Program-made: the position numbers and the translations under genes
In this document: piece after piece, positions 19,984-28,831 of the stretch
How positions within the stretch are numbered: the stretch's first letter is position 1
How the letters are laid out: each line of letters opens with the position of its first letter
From: Pseudomonadota bacterium
Lineage (GTDB): Bacteria > Bdellovibrionota > Bdellovibrionia > Bdellovibrionales > SG-bin7
Direction of reading: 5' to 3'
Assembly (NCBI GenBank): GCA_034439715.1
Contig: JAWXAY010000075.1
Location: 1,040 to 65,039 of the forward strand
DNA: 64,000 nt
The notes under the pieces: model-generated
Databases searched by the model: none
Told to the model about the DNA's origin: nothing
Seen by the model: only the letters and a program-made list of their open reading frames with translations

Positions 19984-21105
19984 TTACGAGACACCATTTA
20001 GAACTTCACGATACAGTTCTTGGTGGGATTCCACCATTCTCTCTAAACGAAATAGATCATGAAAGCGTATTTCAGCGTTGGCGCTCATGCGCGCGCGCAG
20101 ACTATCATTGCCCAAGATTGTGTTGAGCGCCATGGCGAGACTCACGTGATCTTTTGGCGGCACAGTGAGGCCCGTGACGTTTTGTACGTTAACCGATTTC
20201 ACTCCCGACGGAATGTCCGTGGTCACCAATGGGCAGCCGCAGGCTAGACCTTCTATGAGACACATGCCAAAGGCTTCACGCTCGTCAATCGAGGGGAGCA
20301 CTACGACATCGGCCAAATGGTAAAATACACCCAAATCATGTCTCGGAAAATTTCTAAAAAAATGCACCTTATTTGTTAAACCCAAGCTGTGAGCCAGGGT
20401 CTGCAGCGCTTTTTGTTCGGGCCCATCGCCGACCAATAATAAAACGGCATCAACCCTTTTCATAGCCCGAATCAAATACGCCAAGCCCTTATACTCGACA
20501 AGGCGGCCTACATAAACAACAGTTTTTGTATTAAAATTGTTTTTGAGCTGATCAAACATCTGTTGGAGCGATGGCGTAAGTGCAAAACTTTTTTTGTTAA
20601 TGCCAAACGGAATAACTCGACATTTATTTTTGAAATCTCTCAAAACCGGAGAGTTATCGACAAGTTCAAAACTCGAAGTAATGATGGCGCGCGCCTGTGC
20701 AAGTTGTTCGCGTAAAAGGGGGAGGTAAAGCCGATTGAGCCATGGGTAACTTAAAACATCGCAATGATAGGTAATGACATAAGGGACTTTAGTTTTTCTC
20801 AATGCCAATGTCGCGAGTGGATTTGGTAGGTGCACGTGTAATAAATCGGCATCTAAAGACTTAGCCCGCTTCATAAAAGAAAAAGAAATGGGAGTAGAGG
20901 CAATTTCAAAAGGGCGAGACATTTTGTAAACTGGTACACCGTTCACAAAGTGAATTTCATTGTGTGGTGTTGTACCAGTTACAAGACATTTTACGTTAAA
21001 TTCACGTTTGTCGATACCCGTCGTAAGGTCATAAAGTACAGATTCCATACCGCCAGAATGTGGCGGAAAATACTTACCAACTTGAATTAATTTGGCGGGT
21101 GACAT
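19984..21105 (-). CDS. Glycosyltransferase family 4 (GT-B)
   Basis: KYFPPHSGGME, HVHLPNP, VGRLVEYKG, EAFGMCLIE (EX7E). Confidence 0.92.
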   Translation of the reverse strand: MSPAKLIQVGKYFPPHSGGMESVLYDLTTGIDKREFNVKCLVTGTTPHNEIHFVNGVPVYKMSRPFEIASTPISFSFMKRAKSLDADLLHVHLPNPLATLALRKTKVPYVITYHCDVLSYPWLNRLYLPLLREQLAQARAIITSSFELVDNSPVLRDFKNKCRVIPFGINKKSFALTPSLQQMFDQLKNNFNTKTVVYVGRLVEYKGLAYLIRAMKRVDAVLLLVGDGPEQKALQTLAHSLGLTNKVHFFRNFPRHDLGVFYHLADVVVLPSIDEREAFGMCLIEGLACGCPLVTTDIPSGVKSVNVQNVTGLTVPPKDHVSLAMALNTILGNDSLRARMSANAEIRFHDLFRLERMVESHQELYREVLNGVS

Positions 21106-21108
21106 AGT

Positions 21109-21918
21109 TTAAATAATAGAAACAACATCCGCTCTTGTAAATGAATACTTTTCAGAACTAGTCTGAGCAAGAAATCCCGCCAGCCGTAGTTCGCGTTCAA
21201 AATGATCGAAGCTGGGGTAGAAGTGATAGTAAAGCAGGCCGGCATCAGTGTTATGATTTCCTAAAAATGAACTGACGGTATCGCCAGGAGACCAAATATT
21301 TTGACCACGCCATCTAAAGCGTAAAATTTGCGAGCCCCAGAAGAGTCTATCTCTAGGCGTTAACTGCCGAATATATGGCAAGCAAAACAAAACAGAATTT
21401 TGATTGCCCAATTGGTGTAGTTTTTTTAGGAACTCAACTCGCTTGGTTTGGGTAGGTATGTGGCCAATAATAGCTGGAGAAACAAAAAGAAAATCAAAAT
21501 GGGCATTGCTTAAAGAAAACACATCGCCTTGCTTGAAAGTCACCCGACTTTTAATTCTGCTTGAGACCATTTGAGCGCGCATGATCATAGACTGACTGGA
21601 GTCGATCCCTAAAACCTTATAGCCCATTTTTTCAAGCGCAAAGGACTCTCGACCGGCACCACAGCCGACGACTAAAGCTGTGGGGCTGCCCTGAAAAAGC
21701 TTAAAGGCCGCGAAGGCAGCTTGCAGTTCCTCGGACTCTAAGCCAAGACGCACCAATTTTTCGTAATAATCAAGTTCTGTGGGAGTTGAGTAACGTTCGA
21801 TCATTTTATTCATGAGTTTGTCGCTCGACGAAAGCGCCGAAGAAAACGATGGGGAAAACAGTGCCTCAGCAATCTGCTTAAGTCTACGTGGGATCTTTTT
21901 AAAAGAACTGAGGGTCAT
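21109..21918 (-). CDS. Class I SAM-dependent methyltransferase
   Basis: LVVGCGAGRE motif I, GIDSS, GDV. Confidence 0.88.
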   Translation of the reverse strand: MTLSSFKKIPRRLKQIAEALFSPSFSSALSSSDKLMNKMIERYSTPTELDYYEKLVRLGLESEELQAAFAAFKLFQGSPTALVVGCGAGRESFALEKMGYKVLGIDSSQSMIMRAQMVSSRIKSRVTFKQGDVFSLSNAHFDFLFVSPAIIGHIPTQTKRVEFLKKLHQLGNQNSVLFCLPYIRQLTPRDRLFWGSQILRFRWRGQNIWSPGDTVSSFLGNHNTDAGLLYYHFYPSFDHFERELRLAGFLAQTSSEKYSFTRADVVSII

Positions 21919-21919
21919 G

Positions 21920-22738
21920 CTAATATCTTAGCAAAAAATTCCGGCCTTGTGTGCGAACTTTTTTAAAGGCGGAACCCAAAATTTTAAGGCTGATCGCTAA
22001 TAAAACAAGACCAAAGGCGAAAAGCATCGCCCATTCGACAAAGTTAGGTGGCGATTCTGAATATAGGATCCCACGAGCGCGCGTGAGCACAAAGTAAAAG
22101 GGCGAAACGAGTGCCACTGACTTCTGTAGAATCTCAGGTAGCACAGAAGTTGGAAAATAGAGACCCGACAGCAAAGTTAAAAATGAAATTGCGAAGGTCA
22201 GAGCTCTTTCTCCCCGGCCAAACAGGATAAGCACTGTAGCCGATAGTAGTCCTAGGCTCAAAAAAAACGGGAGTGAACAAAAAACAAAGGCCAAAAGTAA
22301 TATAAGTTTTTGCAAACTGAGCTGAAAGCCAAAAAATAAAGCGGCCAATCCAACTAAAATCAAAAGCCGTACTGCATCCAAGGGCAGTTTTGCCAGTGTC
22401 CAAAACAATAAGGGGGTCTGAGTTCGTGTTGGCAGACTCATAAAGGTCTCAAGTGTCCCACTAGCCACAGCCTGACGAACAACATGAATGGTCCCTTCGA
22501 TGAGAACGAGAGGTAAAGTGAGAATTAACTCCCCGCTAAAAACAAAGTTAAAGTAATCGACTGTTTCTGTAGTTAAATGGTCCTTAAGAGCCGGGGCAAA
22601 GGCCTCAGAAGTAAACCAATACATGATTAGGCTCAATACCGAACCGACAAGTGCGCCTCCTATGGCCCATTTGGAGGGGTAGGAATCCTGGTATTCCATT
22701 GCGACAAATTTAGAGTAAATACTCTGCCATTTTTTCAT
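21920..22738 (-). CDS. ABC-2 type exporter permease
   Basis: About six TM segments; GTLE and LSGLYFP motifs; start overlaps the ATPase stop. Confidence 0.88.
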   Translation of the reverse strand: MKKWQSIYSKFVAMEYQDSYPSKWAIGGALVGSVLSLIMYWFTSEAFAPALKDHLTTETVDYFNFVFSGELILTLPLVLIEGTIHVVRQAVASGTLETFMSLPTRTQTPLLFWTLAKLPLDAVRLLILVGLAALFFGFQLSLQKLILLLAFVFCSLPFFLSLGLLSATVLILFGRGERALTFAISFLTLLSGLYFPTSVLPEILQKSVALVSPFYFVLTRARGILYSESPPNFVEWAMLFAFGLVLLAISLKILGSAFKKVRTQGRNFLLRY

Positions 22739-23370
22739 TGAAGTCGACCATTGGCCAGTCTATAGGTTTTAGACTGAAGCGACTGCCACTCTTGATCTAA
22801 GTGGTTAGTAAAAATCAATAATCGATTCTTGCTATTTTCTGATAGAATTTTTACTAAGCCTAGGCGAGTTTTCTTGTCGAGACTTCTTAACGGTTCATCA
22901 AGCAAAAGCACTTTACGGTCGCTAATTAGAGCCAATGTAACTCGTAAAAGTTGCTTCATGCCAGACGACATTTGATTAAACGGAGTTTTTAAAATTTTTG
23001 TGAAGTTGAAGTGTTGACTGAGTTGGTGCAATTTTTTTTCAAGACTCAAATCGTTCAGACCGTAGAATTCAGCTAGAAGCGAGAGATTTTCTTGCCCTGT
23101 TAGGCGTAAAAAAAATCCCCCATCGTTGACGCCGACATAGGCTAATCGGTCCTTAATTTTTAAAAAATCATTTTTAGTGTCAAGATTATCAATTATGACT
23201 TGGCCTTCGGTAGGTAATAAGAGCCCCGCGAGTGTTTTTAAAAAAGTAGTCTTTCCACTGGCATTATCACCGCAAATTTCAATAGTCTCGCCCATTTGCA
23301 CTTCAAAATTGATATCATTTAAAACATTTTTGGCGCCGTAAGAAAAGGTGAGGGCTCGCGTACAAATCAT
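22735..23370 (-). CDS. ABC transporter ATP-binding protein
   Basis: GDNASGKT Walker A, MSSGMKQ signature, LLLDEP Walker B. Confidence 0.92.
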   Translation of the reverse strand: MICTRALTFSYGAKNVLNDINFEVQMGETIEICGDNASGKTTFLKTLAGLLLPTEGQVIIDNLDTKNDFLKIKDRLAYVGVNDGGFFLRLTGQENLSLLAEFYGLNDLSLEKKLHQLSQHFNFTKILKTPFNQMSSGMKQLLRVTLALISDRKVLLLDEPLRSLDKKTRLGLVKILSENSKNRLLIFTNHLDQEWQSLQSKTYRLANGRLQ

Positions 23371-24212
23371 TTAGTTAAACGGCGGAGGCCATATAAAAAA
23401 GCCTCAACGATAGTGTCGCGCATTAGCGCTTTGTAAAACATATAAAAGGCGTGAGGCTTTTTATGGAGTTGTTTACGAATTCTCTCAGGATGAAGAAAGC
23501 GTGCGGAGGTCTTGCGTAAAAACCAAGAGGCCAATGGCTTAAGGGGCTTTTCGCTTACTACACTGTGGCCATAGTACTTCTCGAGAAGAATTAAAGATAC
23601 ACCCACCGCATTTTTTAAGCGATAGGACTTAGCTCGCAGAAATATTTTAGGCCAACTAATCGAAGCGCTTTCTTTAAGTAACAGAAGATTGAGATCATAT
23701 AGCCACTGAATTTCGTCAAATAAATGTTGAAAGGCGCCGTGGCCGCAGAGATAAACAAAAAGATCTTCAGCACAAGGCTCGCGAAACCAAACGAGCCCCG
23801 GAATTTTTGTTTGTCGGGAGTCCTTAATAAAGGAGTAGTCTATATCTCGGTCAACGAGAAGTCCTTTGTGAATTTCTACTGGAAAGTTATCAAATAAATA
23901 AACGGCCCGAAAAGCATTGCCCATCCATTTTTTGCCATTAATAGGTTTGCCACCCAAATCCTTCAGAACTTGCATTGATTTTTCCCAGTTCTGGGGCTCT
24001 ACAAAAAGGTCCAAATCAGTATAGTTACGCTCGCTGGCATTTTCATAATAGCGAAATATCAGGGCCGGTCCCTTTAATATCCAAATAGGAATTTTACGAG
24101 CCATAAACTCTAGATCTAATCTTTTAAGGAGTTCTAAAAAATAAATATGGCGAACAAGGTGAGTTTTTTTTAATATCGTGGAGCCATTATTAGTGAGGTT
24201 CATCTCAGGCAT
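23367..24212 (-). CDS. Nucleotidyltransferase family protein (NTP_transf_5-like)
   Basis: ILKGPAL, ERNYTDLDLFV, VEIH and WLYDL motifs. Confidence 0.85.
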   Translation of the reverse strand: MPEMNLTNNGSTILKKTHLVRHIYFLELLKRLDLEFMARKIPIWILKGPALIFRYYENASERNYTDLDLFVEPQNWEKSMQVLKDLGGKPINGKKWMGNAFRAVYLFDNFPVEIHKGLLVDRDIDYSFIKDSRQTKIPGLVWFREPCAEDLFVYLCGHGAFQHLFDEIQWLYDLNLLLLKESASISWPKIFLRAKSYRLKNAVGVSLILLEKYYGHSVVSEKPLKPLASWFLRKTSARFLHPERIRKQLHKKPHAFYMFYKALMRDTIVEAFLYGLRRLTK

Positions 24213-24218
24213 ACAACA

Positions 24219-24247
24219 ATGCTATTACTCTTATTTTTTAATGTCAA
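24219..24247 (-). promoter_or_regulatory. Internal sigma-70 promoter inside the RiPP cluster
   Basis: Minus strand TTGACA-N17-TAGCAT, 6 nt before ATG 24212. Confidence 0.5.
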
Positions 24248-24681
24248 AGATTTGACTTGAGCCAAAAGAAAGCTCTGCTTAGGAGAAACAGTACTATCAA
24301 GGAGATCCATCTTTTTAGTCGTGTTAAAAAACTTTGATTTGAAAGATGCCCCATCGTTGAAAGCCGGGCCAAAAGCGACTTCAAAGGCTGTCCCCTTTGA
24401 CCCCAAACATAGGATTTATGTTTTCGTTTGAGCCCTTGGACCATTCCCCACATTTGATTTTGATTAAAGGGCTCGAGGTTTGTTGAAAAATCGCCTTTCA
24501 AAAATAGACCATTTTTTAGGGTAACGATTCGGTGTGATATCCATTGTTGTTCATCTTTTACGATGACGATGTCGCCCGTTTCGACTGTGGCTTTCTCAAA
24601 AGAGACTAAGAGTTCATCGCCTTCTTGAAAAAAAGGCCACATGCTGTAGCCAGAAAACGGCAGGCGGGCCAGGGCAGACAC
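24244..24681 (-). CDS. S24/S26 family (signal-peptidase-like) peptidase
   Basis: GYSMWP catalytic Ser, GDIV, SHRIV His, LKGD; GTG start directly after the precursor TAA. Confidence 0.82.
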   Translation of the reverse strand: MSALARLPFSGYSMWPFFQEGDELLVSFEKATVETGDIVIVKDEQQWISHRIVTLKNGLFLKGDFSTNLEPFNQNQMWGMVQGLKRKHKSYVWGQRGQPLKSLLARLSTMGHLSNQSFLTRLKRWISLIVLFLLSRAFFWLKSNL

Positions 24682-24870
24682 TTAAGAGTGTAATTTCAAG
24701 GAATTGCAGCTATCGGCTACCGCAGCCTTACGTCCTCCGGCCATTGACATTCCATTGCACCCGGCTCCATAAATCATTAGAGATTCAGTAGTTACTTTGG
24801 GCGAGCTGTAAGGTTTTTTTTCTGTTTTCTTGTTCTCTGTTTTGGTCTCTGGTTTTTTTGAATTTTTCAT
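24682..24870 (-). CDS. Putative RiPP precursor peptide (62 aa)
   Basis: SD AGGAG; KKPYSSPKV resembles the YxxPxL RRE-binding leader motif; Gly/Ala/Ser-rich core with Cys38 and Cys55; lies between rSAM and peptidase. Confidence 0.85.
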   Translation of the reverse strand: MKNSKKPETKTENKKTEKKPYSSPKVTTESLMIYGAGCNGMSMAGGRKAAVADSCNSLKLHS

Positions 24871-24887
24871 TTTTCTCTCCTGATTTT

Positions 24888-25940
24888 CTAGTTTATTTTT
24901 TGGGCAAATTGATGAGCTTCATATTTTATCTTAGCAAGCATCTGTTGAAATGGAGTTACTTTTAGTGGGTCGCCATGTTCGTGTTGAGCTGCGGCTGGGC
25001 AGTGATCGCAAAAGGACATATGTTTACCCTCTACACCCTTCATTTGGCCAAACTTAAATTCTCGCCATTTTGAGGCTAGTTTGCTCTCCCAAATTTCTGA
25101 AAAGTTTTGCTTGGTTAAATCTCCGAGCGGCTCTCTAACCTCAATGCAAGTAAGTAGTTCGCCATAAGCTGTAACAGCACATTTACCTTTAGCCGCATTG
25201 CAAAGATAGTCGGATTTAGTTTCGGTGGAGGGTTGAGGTGCTGAATAGGGCCAACGTGTAATATGCTTGATGTAAAATTCCCGAAGCTGTTCGGGCGTAG
25301 CGCGCAAAGATGTTGGTGATAGCTCTCCATCAAATTTAGGCGTAATAAAAGCATCGTGCCTAACAGCGGCGTTTCGGCTAATTCCCCATTCAGCCATTTC
25401 AAAATAGGACTCAATGTTTGCTTGGGTTAATAGACAATTAATATGAATATTTATTTTTTGAGCGACGCAGATTTCAATCGCCTTTTTGGTTTTCTCGCAA
25501 GACCCATAAACTCGAGTCATTTTATCATGGATGGCAGGATCTAGGCTATACAAGCTAAAGGCGATGTCGGCCATGCCTACTTCTTTTAAGCGCCTTCCTG
25601 TTTTTTCATTTATCAATAGTCCATTAGTGATCATAGAAAGAGAAAATCCCAGGCGATGGGCTTCGTCAGCAATGTCCCAAAAAAGTGGGTTCAACATGGC
25701 TTCACCGCCCATGAGGATTAAGTAAAGAGTTCCCGCTTCGCGCAGTTGCTTTAAAATATGTTTCCACTGGTCTAAGTTTAGAACTCGAGAGGCAGTATCT
25801 TTGTATTCAGGAATATAACAGTGCGAACAGCGCTCATTACAGCGATTCGTTAGTTCGAGCGAAGCCTGAATAGGTCGAAAGGCCTGGATACTGCGGTTCT
25901 GCCATTTGTCAAAAACCGAAACACCTCGTTCAACGGACAA
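24888..25940 (-). CDS. Radical SAM peptide maturase with SPASM/Twitch-like C-terminus
   Basis: CNERCSHC (CxxxCxxC), GGE, ITNG; C-terminal CNAAKGKC...GELLTC...FSEIWES...CDHCP. Confidence 0.92.
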   Translation of the reverse strand: MSVERGVSVFDKWQNRSIQAFRPIQASLELTNRCNERCSHCYIPEYKDTASRVLNLDQWKHILKQLREAGTLYLILMGGEAMLNPLFWDIADEAHRLGFSLSMITNGLLINEKTGRRLKEVGMADIAFSLYSLDPAIHDKMTRVYGSCEKTKKAIEICVAQKINIHINCLLTQANIESYFEMAEWGISRNAAVRHDAFITPKFDGELSPTSLRATPEQLREFYIKHITRWPYSAPQPSTETKSDYLCNAAKGKCAVTAYGELLTCIEVREPLGDLTKQNFSEIWESKLASKWREFKFGQMKGVEGKHMSFCDHCPAAAQHEHGDPLKVTPFQQMLAKIKYEAHQFAQKIN

Positions 25941-26205
25941 GAAGCATTCCCTTCTCCCTCATTTCGCCAATGAGGGTAATTGTGTCGGCGGTCGCTTGTT
26001 CAGTCGGGACATCGAACTCATTACAAAGACTAGTCACAACAGCTCGTACACTCGTTTCTCCATCGAGCATTCTCCAAATAAAAGTGGCTGTTTCATTGAG
26101 TTCGTGGACCGCTGATTTTTGAGGAGTAAGAACTAACGCTTTGCCTTCCATTTCTTGCCAGGGAGTTAGAGTTTCCTTTTTAAAAACTTGATCAATCGTT
26201 TCCAT
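25930..26205 (-). CDS. PqqD-family RiPP recognition element
   Basis: HELNETATFIWRMLDG...V..LCNEFDV...D...L; SD AGGAG before ATG 26205. Confidence 0.92.
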   Translation of the reverse strand: METIDQVFKKETLTPWQEMEGKALVLTPQKSAVHELNETATFIWRMLDGETSVRAVVTSLCNEFDVPTEQATADTITLIGEMREKGMLLVR

Positions 26206-27124
26206 CAACAACTCCTAAAAATGGGGTATTTAAATTGAGTTTCAAATTCCAGCTTGGAACCGTCGCTAAAAACCGCTCTGTAAGTTGGGTTAACTTCTGA
26301 ACTTCTTGGTGGCTGACATGAGTCCAGTTGGGATACATTAGCGACATAAAAAATCTTCTCATAGCGGCTACGCCAGACAAGCGTGTTTTTTCTAAATCTC
26401 CCGCCTGTTCTAAAAAATAAAAACCATTTATTGGAAATTTTTTACCAGCTCGCCCTTTAAATTTAGGATTCTGTCCTAGTATCGGAGTTTCAGCAAACGC
26501 TGTGCTATTTTCAATGGTAATCAAGATCATATCGTCACCAAGTATCAGGCGATCTTTAATGCGCGAAACCGTTGTCGTTTTGCCCACGCCAGAGGGGCCG
26601 ATAAACATATGTGCCCGATCGCCCTGACCGACAAAACACGAACTATGCATAACGATACAATCTTTTCTTAACAAAAACTTTGGCATTAACCAGCGAAGCG
26701 CATTATAAAATCCGTCATCTAAATTTGGCCGTACATAGACGCTGATTAGCTTCTCATTTTTTGCTATTCCCATAAAGTCACGCTGTATGGCTACTTCGCA
26801 ATTACTATGTCTTGAAATTTCTAAGTCCGAAATTGGGTCCTCATTCCAATGGCTAAGTTCACTTTCGCTCACACCAAAGGGACTCTGCCAAGAAACACAA
26901 AAATCTAACGGTTCTGATGATGAATGATTTGTCGTCTCTAAAACGTTGTAAGAATTTAGGATTCTTTCAACCCAATTCTTCATTTCAATATTGTCGTAAG
27001 AAAAACCGACGTTGAGACCGTGGATCAAAAACTGTGCAGAAAATTCATTTTTAGATTTAAGCTCTAACGCTCTCGGAATCAGTGACCTTTTTTTATTTCG
27101 AGAATCAATCTGTACGTCATTCAT
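26192..27124 (-). CDS. HPr kinase-related kinase (ScmC/PadeK-like)
   Basis: MHSS His motif, GPSGVGKTT Walker A, LGDD Asp-Asp motif. Confidence 0.85.
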   Translation of the reverse strand: MNDVQIDSRNKKRSLIPRALELKSKNEFSAQFLIHGLNVGFSYDNIEMKNWVERILNSYNVLETTNHSSSEPLDFCVSWQSPFGVSESELSHWNEDPISDLEISRHSNCEVAIQRDFMGIAKNEKLISVYVRPNLDDGFYNALRWLMPKFLLRKDCIVMHSSCFVGQGDRAHMFIGPSGVGKTTTVSRIKDRLILGDDMILITIENSTAFAETPILGQNPKFKGRAGKKFPINGFYFLEQAGDLEKTRLSGVAAMRRFFMSLMYPNWTHVSHQEVQKLTQLTERFLATVPSWNLKLNLNTPFLGVVDGND

Positions 27125-27223: not shown

Positions 27224-27787
27224 TCATTTACTGCCACCCAGAAGGCCTTCTTTTAACTCGGGGTTTGGCGGTTCTTTTCCAATGAAAACTGACATGATGG
27301 TCTTTGGAAAATGAGGGTCAAAAATAGCACCCTGATCCTTGTTTTTTACAGTGACTTGCAGATGATCCGAAAAGACGCTAAATACCATGCGATCGCCTGA
27401 CTGCATATCAGTCATCATGGTCAAAAATCTTTTTATAAGGGGCTTTTGCTCTTCGCATAGTGCACCACAATTATTTTTGAAGGCAACTTCCCAACCTTCA
27501 GTTACTTTGGATTTTGATACTTCTCTCAAGAAGTGAAGGACTACTTTTTTTGGACTGGTGCTCTCAATAATCTCATTCGATAATTTCGTTTTTTTTTCAA
27601 TATAAAGGCCAGCCACATAAACTTTTATCGGGACAAATAAAATCCGAGTGAGTCGAGTGCCCAGGCCATTTAATACGAGTTCTTTTTCGTCAAGAATTTC
27701 CTTATCAACAAATTCGACATCGTAAATTTTCGCTGCCTGAGCTGTGGTTGCAAGAAAAACCAATATGATTAAATTCTTAATGATCAT
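27224..27787 (-). CDS. Chalcone isomerase-like periplasmic protein
   Basis: Signal peptide; LVLNGLGTR, VYVAGLY, LKEGLLG. Confidence 0.88.
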   Translation of the reverse strand: MIIKNLIILVFLATTAQAAKIYDVEFVDKEILDEKELVLNGLGTRLTRILFVPIKVYVAGLYIEKKTKLSNEIIESTSPKKVVLHFLREVSKSKVTEGWEVAFKNNCGALCEEQKPLIKRFLTMMTDMQSGDRMVFSVFSDHLQVTVKNKDQGAIFDPHFPKTIMSVFIGKEPPNPELKEGLLGGSK

Positions 27788-27866: not shown

Positions 27867-28070
27867 TTAAATGCAGGGGATATGCGGGATATCTGGTAGA
27901 TCCGGAAGATCTGGAATTTTTGGCAATTCAATGCCGATATCTGGCAATTTGACATCGGGAAGTTCAATTTTGATATCAGGAATTGGACAATCACCTTCAT
28001 GACTGTCTGCGAATGCGCTGATGCCAGTTAATAATGCAGCCACAAAAGAAATAGCTAGAATTTTCCTCAT
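27867..28070 (-). CDS. Secreted Pro-rich micropeptide with (I/L/V)P(D/K) repeats
   Basis: SD AGGAGG; signal peptide ending AFA; own terminator; repeats flanked by two Cys. Confidence 0.8.
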   Translation of the reverse strand: MRKILAISFVAALLTGISAFADSHEGDCPIPDIKIELPDVKLPDIGIELPKIPDLPDLPDIPHIPCI

Positions 28071-28366: not shown

Positions 28367-28831
28367 GTGCCTCGCATATCAACTTTGTTTCAAAATCAGT
28401 TTGTTTTTCATATGACGGGGAGAGCTCTTGGACATCGCTGGCAGGAGTGGGAGGCGCGGCTCCAACAAGAATCCAAAAATAAAAAATTAACCGTACATGC
28501 TTTTGTACTGATGTCGACACACTTTCATTTACTGTTGAGTGTAAAAACTAAAGAAAACCTAGATGTCGAATTCGAAGGTACGACATATTCCGTTAACAAT
28601 TTCGAGCAGTATAAAAATTCTTATAGATATATTTACCGGAACCCCGTTGTGGCGGGGCTTTGTCTGCGGGCCGAAAACTATCCTTTTAGCACATTGCCAT
28701 TAATACTTGGAAAAAGAAGTTCAAAAATTCCCGTGGTCGATCATATGGGATTAATCGTGGATCCCCAAAAAATACTTGAGTGGATCAACACAAATCCAAC
28801 AGCTCGGCCCAAGTATTCACGATATGATTAG
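28367..28831 (+). mobile_element. REP-associated tyrosine transposase-like (RAYT/Y1 HUH) gene, internally shortened
   Basis: MPR start, FHMTGR, AFVLMSTHFHLL (HUH), YIYRNPVVAG, YPFST. Confidence 0.8.

Follow-up and report, generated by a model that had tools for sequence, protein, structure and literature searches.

A short precursor peptide family from Bdellovibrionota, predicted to follow a radical SAM variant of the linear polyphosphorylated peptide pathway

The DNA considered here (the window) is a contiguous stretch of 64,000 nucleotides from a bacterium of the Bdellovibrionales, on the reverse strand of which lies a gene for a precursor peptide of 62 residues. Sequence comparison indicates that the family to which this peptide belongs is a radical SAM variant of a peptide pathway described in 2026, that of the linear polyphosphorylated peptides (LPP; Popov et al. 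2026, PMC13381572), and that it lies outside the LPP, lasso, spliceotide, and cyclophane families. The pathway likely works as does that of LPP, with terminal phosphorylation of the paeninodin type and an additional radical SAM step. We tentatively favor as its product a 26-mer in which Cys residues form thioethers and the C-terminus is phosphorylated, a model which, taken as a whole, falls somewhat short of probable; the radical chemistry is its weakest step. The open reading frame, the operon, the conservation pattern, and the intact catalytic motifs upon which it is built are matters of observation. Coordinates are collected in Table 1.

Table 1. Features of the precursor gene and its operon (positions are those of the window).
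Feature	Position	Strand	Remarks
HprK/PEPCK-fold kinase (LppK/PadeK-like)	26192..27124	-	in 52/53 loci
Discrete PqqD/RRE	25930..26211	-	PF05402, E 1e-18; in 44/53 loci
Radical SAM enzyme, shortened five-Cys SPASM domain	24888..25940	-	in 49/53 loci
Ribosome-binding site AGGAG	24877..24881	-	6 nt upstream of precursor ATG
Precursor peptide gene, 62 aa	24682..24870	-	ORF 24870-24682, reads as quoted in the initial annotation
Leader motif Tyr21-x-x-Pro24-x-Val26, predicted RRE-binding site	24793..24810	-	Tyr in 143/146 homologues with modal spacing
Tyr34-Gly35-Ala36, predicted -3/-2/-1 site of S26 leader peptidase	24763..24771	-	predicted from the LPP register
Predicted core Gly37-Ser62, 26 aa	24685..24762	-	predicted; 25 aa on the lasso register
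Cys38-Asn39-Gly40	24751..24759	-	Asn in 178/187; Cys and Gly invariant in 106-row alignment
Gly-Gly-Arg-Lys48	24727..24738	-	loop Lys 187/187, GGRK 139/187
Cys55, 7 residues from C-terminus	24706..24708	-	tail of 7 in 157/187, of 5 in 27/187
Ser62, C-terminal, predicted phospho-acceptor	24685..24687	-	Ser 160, Thr 24 of 187
Soluble archaeal-type S26 peptidase (LppS-like)	24244..24681	-	TIGR02228, E 6.5e-7, below cut-off; in 46/53 loci
NTP_transf_5 nucleotidyltransferase (LppN/PsmN-like)	23367..24212	-	PF14907, E 5e-29; in 48/53 loci
ABC-2 exporter, ATPase + permease	21920..23370	-	in 27 and 26 of 53 loci
Accessory methyltransferase + GT4 glycosyltransferase	19984..21918	-	methyltransferase in 10/53 loci; fused in same-family loci L131, L180

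The precursor frame is a genuine gene, the homologue counts being far beyond chance. Its stop codon abuts the GTG start of the next gene, and Tyr21, Pro24, Tyr34, Cys38, and Cys55 are all present as listed in an earlier annotation made from the sequence alone (the initial annotation), with 16 residues separating the two Cys. The Lys-rich leader ascribed there to the 62-residue frame was likewise confirmed, residues 1-20 containing 8 Lys/Arg and 3 Asp/Glu. Scans against Pfam and NCBIfam assign the precursor peptides to no family. AlphaFold predicted no fold for the isolated peptide (pTM 0.21), a result that is compatible with the "flexible" inter-Cys segment that had been proposed, but is uninformative. 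Promoter and terminator matches are at chance level (14 vs 16.6 and 12 vs 9.1, respectively).

A search with the single precursor sequence retrieved only the precursor itself. A seed alignment was consequently sought among 60 related genomes in the form of precursors lying beside related radical SAM genes (six close and one distant); the neighbors of those radical SAM genes yielded six further precursors, locus L002 stopping at the contig end. The seven-row profile found 120 proteins at E<=0.1, plus 77 representatives in a second search. After merging, and with the long proteins P0165 and P0184 left out, the homologue set consists of 187 peptides, of which 178 pass a stricter pattern (n=178 below). 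Since the profile holds the motifs, the positive conservation counts are inflated, whereas the failures at Tyr34 and at the second Asn are unaffected. The precursor is present in 49 of the 401 genomes of the phylum, or about one in eight of those searched, and the named close relatives are Bdellovibrionales and other Bdellovibrionota.

The initial annotation had proposed to check the conservation of the YxxP motif, the Cys residues, two Cys-Asn motifs, GGRK, and Tyr34. The alignment upholds the YxxP and the Cys, exactly two of the latter being found in 186/187 homologues, and GGRK too is widely kept, a loop Lys being invariant (Table 1). The Cys-Asn motifs fared unevenly: Asn follows the first Cys in 178/187 peptides and the second in just 73/187, so that a repeated CN is not a family trait. 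Position 34 is occupied by Phe (87), Tyr (31), Leu (21), Val (20), or Gly (13), with Ile also seen (n=187); it is aromatic in 118/187 and aliphatic or Gly in about one-third, from which it follows that I-Y-G is local to the window and not family-wide. Three features escaped the initial annotation: the conserved Ser/Thr at the C-terminus, the Lys present in every inter-Cys loop, and the S26 cleavage site predicted here.

From the leader Tyr to the first Cys there are 17 positions in 146/187 homologues and 18-37 in the other 41/187, and the cleavage register is thus not universal. The first Cys lies 9 (163) or 10 (15, the window included) residues from the Lys in the set of 187, and the second Cys 7 (157) or 5 (27) from the end (184/187), whereas the spacing from Lys to the second Cys varies from 4 to 11; the inter-Cys loop is 12 to 20 residues in 177/178. 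The core therefore consists of two fixed-length modules, Cys1 to Lys and Cys2 to the end, joined by a variable linker. The idea that the enzyme acts twice, previously read from the repeated Cys-Asn, loses that footing, but two such modules fit two independent events, and would also fit a disulfide. Trp or Tyr occurs anywhere in the core in 6/187 peptides; Phe is found there in 97/178, mostly directly before the second Cys, and is absent from the window core. The peptides end with Ser in 160 cases, with Thr in 24, and with some other residue in 3 (n=187), against a background of 10.3% Ser/Thr in 2199 long ORFs of this genome. At L175:9141-9618 two precursor genes lie in tandem, with Gly-rich insertions after the leader motif and ahead of the first Cys.

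The precursor gene is part of a co-directional run encoding an HprK-like kinase, PqqD/RRE, radical SAM/SPASM enzyme, precursor, S24/S26 peptidase, NTP_transf_5 protein, ABC-2 ATPase and permease, methyltransferase, and GT4 glycosyltransferase. For comparison, 53 neighborhoods were assembled, the window counted in, several of them being cut by contig ends; clustering of the neighbors merged families through fused genes, and per-gene profiles were used instead. Across these 53 loci gene order is shuffled and gene content constant, and no additional gene family recurs with the cassette beyond those named here. GT4 genes are found in 23/53 loci, many of them within polysaccharide-type runs. The cassette lies inside or beside runs of this type (GT4, SLBB, MraY-like transferase) in L140, L142, L159, L161, L167, L176, and L181, as in LPP clusters. 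Two RRE genes, or an RRE-radical SAM fusion plus a discrete RRE, are seen in L140, L142, L143, L151, and L166; other fusions unite kinase and S26 (L145, L182), radical SAM and S26 (L147), S26 and methyltransferase (L133), and methyltransferase and GT4 (L131, L180). In L153, L154, and L164 the cassette adjoins a module for error-prone replication, made up of genes for an IMS/Y-family polymerase and for DNA polymerase III alpha. Upstream of the operon, the window contains a chalcone-isomerase-like gene directly before the kinase (27224-27787, -; confined to the window and same-family genomes, 3/53 loci), a 67-aa ORF two genes upstream with a signal-peptide-like start, short Pro/Asp/Leu repeats, and no family match (27867-28070, -), and a weak match to a REP-associated tyrosine transposase (28367-28831, +; E 2.5e-9, below cut-off).

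Eighty more distant radical SAM loci were also compared. The kinase was found in 18 of them, and 14 yielded, by eye, 15 candidate precursors. Each of these has a YxxP leader, contains two or three Cys, and ends in Ser/Thr. Three Cys are frequent in these candidates, with the Lys moved next to the first Cys. The 14 loci belong to Desulfobacterota, Chloroflexota, Acidobacteriota, Armatimonadota, Omnitrophota, and others. A Pfam/NCBIfam scan of 14 of the 15 candidates assigned them to no family. The candidate precursor of L059, a locus with a different gene layout and no kinase detected, ends in His.

The RRE profile finds its best solved relatives in TbiB1, PbaB1, LppB (E 3e-11), and TfuB1, which are the RREs of lasso and LPP systems. 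In LppB, Asn33 and Asp70 are described as holding the leader Pro and Tyr (PMC13381572); by alignment count the equivalent residues of the window protein, Asn39 (45/49) and Asp76 (47/49), are conserved in the family. This agrees with the earlier proposal of a RiPP precursor whose YxxP leader serves the adjacent PqqD/RRE, and we consider it very probable, on these grounds, that the RRE would grip the YxxP leader of the precursor.

Two registers are available for placing the end of the leader. In LPP, whose peptidase is likewise of the S26 type, the leader is described as carrying its Tyr at -16 and as ending in Phe-Glu-Thr, with Phe occupying -3 and Thr -1; these last residues matter for LppS, which cuts directly after them with Phe-3 seated in a hydrophobic cleft (PMC13381572). 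Lasso leaders have Tyr at -17 (PMC10368454), a register on which the core would start at Cys38. When the LPP register is applied to the family, -3 is Phe/Tyr/Val/Ile in 146/146, -2 Gly/Ala in 146/146, and -1 Ala in 143/146. The S26 peptidase keeps Ser13, His50, and Asp64 in 45/45 sequences, like the LppS triad, and is predicted to cut after Tyr34-Gly35-Ala36, releasing a core of 26 residues. A cut at Ala36/Gly37 is thus reasonably probable, while one at Gly37/Cys38 is unlikely. Since Tyr34-Gly-Ala falls on the S26 site under the LPP register, and Tyr34 is within the leader under the lasso register as well, this residue likely belongs to the leader.

Lasso kinases whose target is a conserved Ser at the peptide terminus are reported to carry a His-Lys-Asp-Asp motif (PMC9266682). 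The kinase family considered here has His160 in 51/51, Lys182 in 51/51, Asp197 in 46/51, and Asp198 in 51/51 sequences. The related kinases LppK and BsfK are described as modifying an internal Ser3, not the terminus (PMC13381572, PMC10368454). In the present family core position +3 is Asn in 178/187 and Ser in 2/187, and in the 106-row alignment no internal Ser/Thr is invariant, which leaves the kinase without another constant target. Phosphorylation of the terminal Ser62 by the kinase is accordingly rated, from the sequences, as quite likely. In the case of pseudomycoidin, the nucleotidyltransferase gene is required for hexosylation of the terminal phosphoserine (PMC9266682), and LppN was inactive in a heterologous host (PMC13381572). 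In the nucleotidyltransferase of the present family Asp66 and Asp68 are found in 48/48 sequences; this enzyme would next add a nucleotide or sugar to the phosphoserine, after which the product would reach the cell surface through the ABC-2 pump.

The radical SAM enzyme was modeled with confidence (pLDDT 96) and matches SuiB, SkfB, PqqE, CteB, and anSME at TM 0.58-0.69 with no clear winner, SuiB and SkfB being the best fold matches with similar scores and SuiB on top. SuiB is a cross-linker that forms a Lys-Trp C-C bond. By sequence profile the best solved relative is the sactisynthase SkfB, and the decarboxylase BlsE is also matched; the top NCBIfam matches (NirJ2, AhbD, NirJ, PqqE, MftC) are all far below cut-off. 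Two clades of enzyme, each with a support of 100 in a quick tree and sharing 24% identity, accompany the same precursor family: clade A, exemplified by the window enzyme, within which identity is 38-58%, and clade B, exemplified by L149:5945-6994. Clade A has the pattern Cx6Cx10C...Cx2C, in which three second-cluster cysteines are lost and a total of five are kept; clade B has Cx2Cx5C plus a distal Cys, with Ser at the fourth position, and the distant members (n=13) the seven-Cys SPASM pattern. From SPASM structures we take these Cys to be the ligands of the auxiliary clusters.

A six-residue active-site profile, after PMC10288494, reads YMISIE in the window, YTKSIG in most of clade B, and mostly YTF[S/T][L/I]M in the distant enzymes; the references are StsB YTISKL, CteB FFTSHQ, SkfB YTFSQL, PqqE SSISHA, and SuiB FLTSIA. 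The window profile agrees with StsB at 3/6 positions, with SkfB, SuiB, and PqqE at 2/6 each, and with CteB at 1/6, and is not diagnostic. Taken together the profiles lean weakly to sactionine chemistry. We surmise that the enzyme forms thioether rings from Cys38 and Cys55, and it appears somewhat more probable than the contrary that at least one Cys thioether is present. The nearly fixed Cys-to-Lys spacing places the partner of Cys38 most likely within Gly-Gly-Arg-Lys, and that of Cys55 most likely lies in the fixed-length tail.

A disulfide is also compatible with two Cys on either side of a variable loop. It is conceivable, if rather doubtful, that leader recognition, cut, and phosphorylation are the same but that Cys38 is paired with Cys55 in a disulfide, or that both bind a metal, the radical SAM enzyme acting elsewhere through a Lys48 or Asn39 cross-link, or by epimerization. 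The loop length is tolerable for a disulfide, the Lys is as invariant as the two Cys, SuiB heads the fold matches with Ile common at profile position 5, and the five SPASM Cys of the window enzyme could fully ligate one auxiliary cluster, which may then be without an open site. A Lys cross-link, however, would find no conserved aromatic partner, the distant relatives often have three Cys with the Lys beside the first, and the distant enzymes have an SkfB-like profile, starting with Y-T-F-S/T in most. Less likely again is a radical SAM enzyme acting on the Ser/Thr end, for example by oxidative decarboxylation similar to that of MftC or AhbD, possibly of the phosphorylated residue and with Cys55 effecting a capture, the kinase working there or on an internal hydroxyl. 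The fixed distance from Cys55 to the terminus and the internal Ser3 targets of LppK and BsfK would suit it, as would the matches to AhbD, MftC, and the decarboxylase BlsE, but the latter all score far under their cut-offs and are of a kind common to SPASM proteins, and an internal hydroxyl is disfavored by the Asn at +3 and the want of any invariant internal Ser/Thr.

The initial annotation offered three chemistries, of which Cys thioether formation is retained as a prediction, while the two centered on Tyr34 find no support. Spliceases act at XYG (PMC11414181), a sequence that is present in the window peptide and in 31/178 homologues, yet tyramine excision at Ile33-Tyr34-Gly35 is hardly credible: 156/187 peptides have Phe, Leu, Val, Gly, or Ile in place of the Tyr despite orthologous enzymes, the site is in the predicted leader, and no splicease model is among the best 25 NCBIfam matches. 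An aromatic cross-link from Tyr34, giving a cyclophane, might be argued from the aromatic majority at this position and from SuiB as top fold match, and is nevertheless very improbable, given the third of homologues with an aliphatic residue or Gly, the probable leader location, and the scarcity of Trp/Tyr in the core. The preference for hydrophobic residues at position 34 is accounted for by the -3 pocket of the S26 peptidase, as with LppA Phe-3 (PMC13381572).

A C25-family gene or fragment is found near the precursor in 33/53 loci, that of L176 being a small C25. The complete giant C25 proteins are mostly of about 2,500 aa, with some >3,000 (range 2,500-3,500 aa), and their C-terminus comprises a Cys, a hydrophobic or transmembrane stretch, and basic residues. 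Among the matches listed, the precursor is carried by 38/41 genomes with a C25 frame >1,400 aa, although kin among these genomes are not independent; 11 precursor-carrying genomes are without such a frame among the same matches. In this genome the giant C25 gene is on a contig other than that of the precursor (G000:C33:29695-40344, equivalent to L183:2696-13345), and its 3,549-codon frame specifies a protein for secretion, in which the N-terminal block is duplicated and which also contains a C25 domain resembling that of PorU and the Cys-transmembrane-basic tail. The best solved relative is PorU (PDB 6za2, E 1.5e-10), which serves type IX secretion as its C25 transpeptidase (PMC8545088). The catalytic dyad (His 21/21, Cys 20/21) is intact in this genome's copy, and the PorU model NF033707 scores 117-209 bits in four relatives against a cut-off of 420. 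Unlike PorU, these proteins reach 2,500-3,500 aa and end in the Cys-transmembrane-basic tail, which recalls MYXO-CTERM; no MYXO-CTERM model is matched by them. G222, G241, and G336 encode a giant C25 protein, with neither a precursor nor a clear kinase found with these queries. Since G336 (C25 frame at G336:C30:13240-14319) is 100% complete with no detectable cassette, the link between C25 and the precursor is not obligate. A connection between PorU and RiPPs was not described in the papers searched.

The exported product probably meets the co-inherited giant C25 protein at the cell surface. An adventurous extension, which we regard as quite improbable, is that the product serves as a surface tether and not as a diffusible antibiotic: the nucleotidyltransferase would link its phosphoserine tail to a glycan of the surface, the invariant Lys or the freed N-terminus would act as nucleophile for the PorU-like C25 transpeptidase, and the thioether-stapled peptide would couple giant adhesin-like proteins to the capsule of the predator. 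If true, a RiPP would function as an anchor for protein sorting, and the cassette encoding it would extend across several phyla. The biological role and final product of the LPP/paeninodin tailoring kit (kinase, nucleotidyltransferase) are given as not known in PMC13381572, and a first concrete clue to what such phosphopeptides do comes from the close association with a giant surface protein resembling PorU. The family also provides a substrate that is short, strongly conserved, and equipped with well-defined points of attack, namely two Cys, one Lys, the Ser at the terminus, and a predicted cut site, and two radical SAM clades working upon the same peptide family constitute a natural replicate for finding the chemistry.

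Neither an LPP-like pathway that includes a radical SAM enzyme nor the present precursor family was found described in the literature searches. The SynChlorMet cassette (ScmC/ScmD/ScmE/ScmF) resembles the operon in possessing PqqD, an ScmC-related kinase-like protein, and radical SAM/SPASM enzymes, with weak matches to all four models. Scores against cut-offs are 16/125, 37/100, 65/400, and 65/400 bits for ScmC, D, E, and F; the window has one radical SAM gene vs two, its precursor matches no model, and the assignment was rejected. Sactipeptides and ranthipeptides (SkfB, StsB, CteB; PMC10288494) share an RRE-associated radical SAM/SPASM enzyme and conserved Cys in the core. The window system differs in falling below every such NCBIfam cut-off among the matches listed, in having only two, widely spaced Cys and a five-Cys SPASM domain, and in its tailoring by kinase, S26 peptidase, and nucleotidyltransferase. 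The spreadsheet supplement of PMC10288494 gave no match to the taxon or motif terms used, and the full profile tables and the logos for six predicted groups of sactipeptides in its PDF supplement may be relevant both to novelty and to the comparison of profiles. Membership of the spliceotides was rejected, the XYG not being a conserved core element here (Tyr in 31/187, within the predicted leader), as was that of the radical SAM cyclophanes, the core having no conserved aromatic residue (Trp/Tyr in 6/187).

The phosphorylated lasso peptides (paeninodin PadeK, ThcoK; pseudomycoidin PsmK, PsmN; BsfA; PMC9266682, PMC10368454) are described with the same YxxPx-hydrophobic leader, RRE, His-Lys-Asp-Asp kinase, terminal Ser, and nucleotidyltransferase, but the window operon is without the macrolactam cyclase and the B2 cysteine peptidase. 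A lasso peptide was rejected on this account and from the core and leader themselves, with Asp/Glu at core positions 7-9 in 3/178 and Thr at -2 in 1/178.

By comparison, LPP of the Bacillota (LppA/B/K/S/D/N), as described in PMC13381572, share the YxxP leader with a discrete lasso-type RRE, the HprK-like kinase, the Ser-His-Asp S26 peptidase, NTP_transf_5, and an exporter, the lasso cyclase being absent from both; polysaccharide genes are often nearby, and the leader ends in a hydrophobic-x-small pattern at -3/-1. The LPP core gene set (SpI-like peptidase, HprK kinase, NTP transferase, and exporter) is accordingly present. Strict membership was rejected, since of the consensus YxxPxVLxHQxIxFETxxS with phosphorylated Ser3 only the YxxP and the -3/-1 character are common to both. 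The main text of PMC13381572 contains neither "radical" nor "rSAM," and its supplement lists one Bdellovibrionales S26 peptidase with two RREs and no precursor assigned. In contrast to LPP as described there, the window family is found in a different phylum, exports through an ABC-2 rather than an MsbA-type pump, is without the core Ser3, and is co-inherited with a giant C25 protein; it has in addition a radical SAM/SPASM enzyme and a short, conserved core in which two Cys and one Lys are invariant and the terminal residue is Ser/Thr. The presence of the radical SAM gene in 49/53 loci argues against a linear, primarily phosphorylated product of the LPP type.
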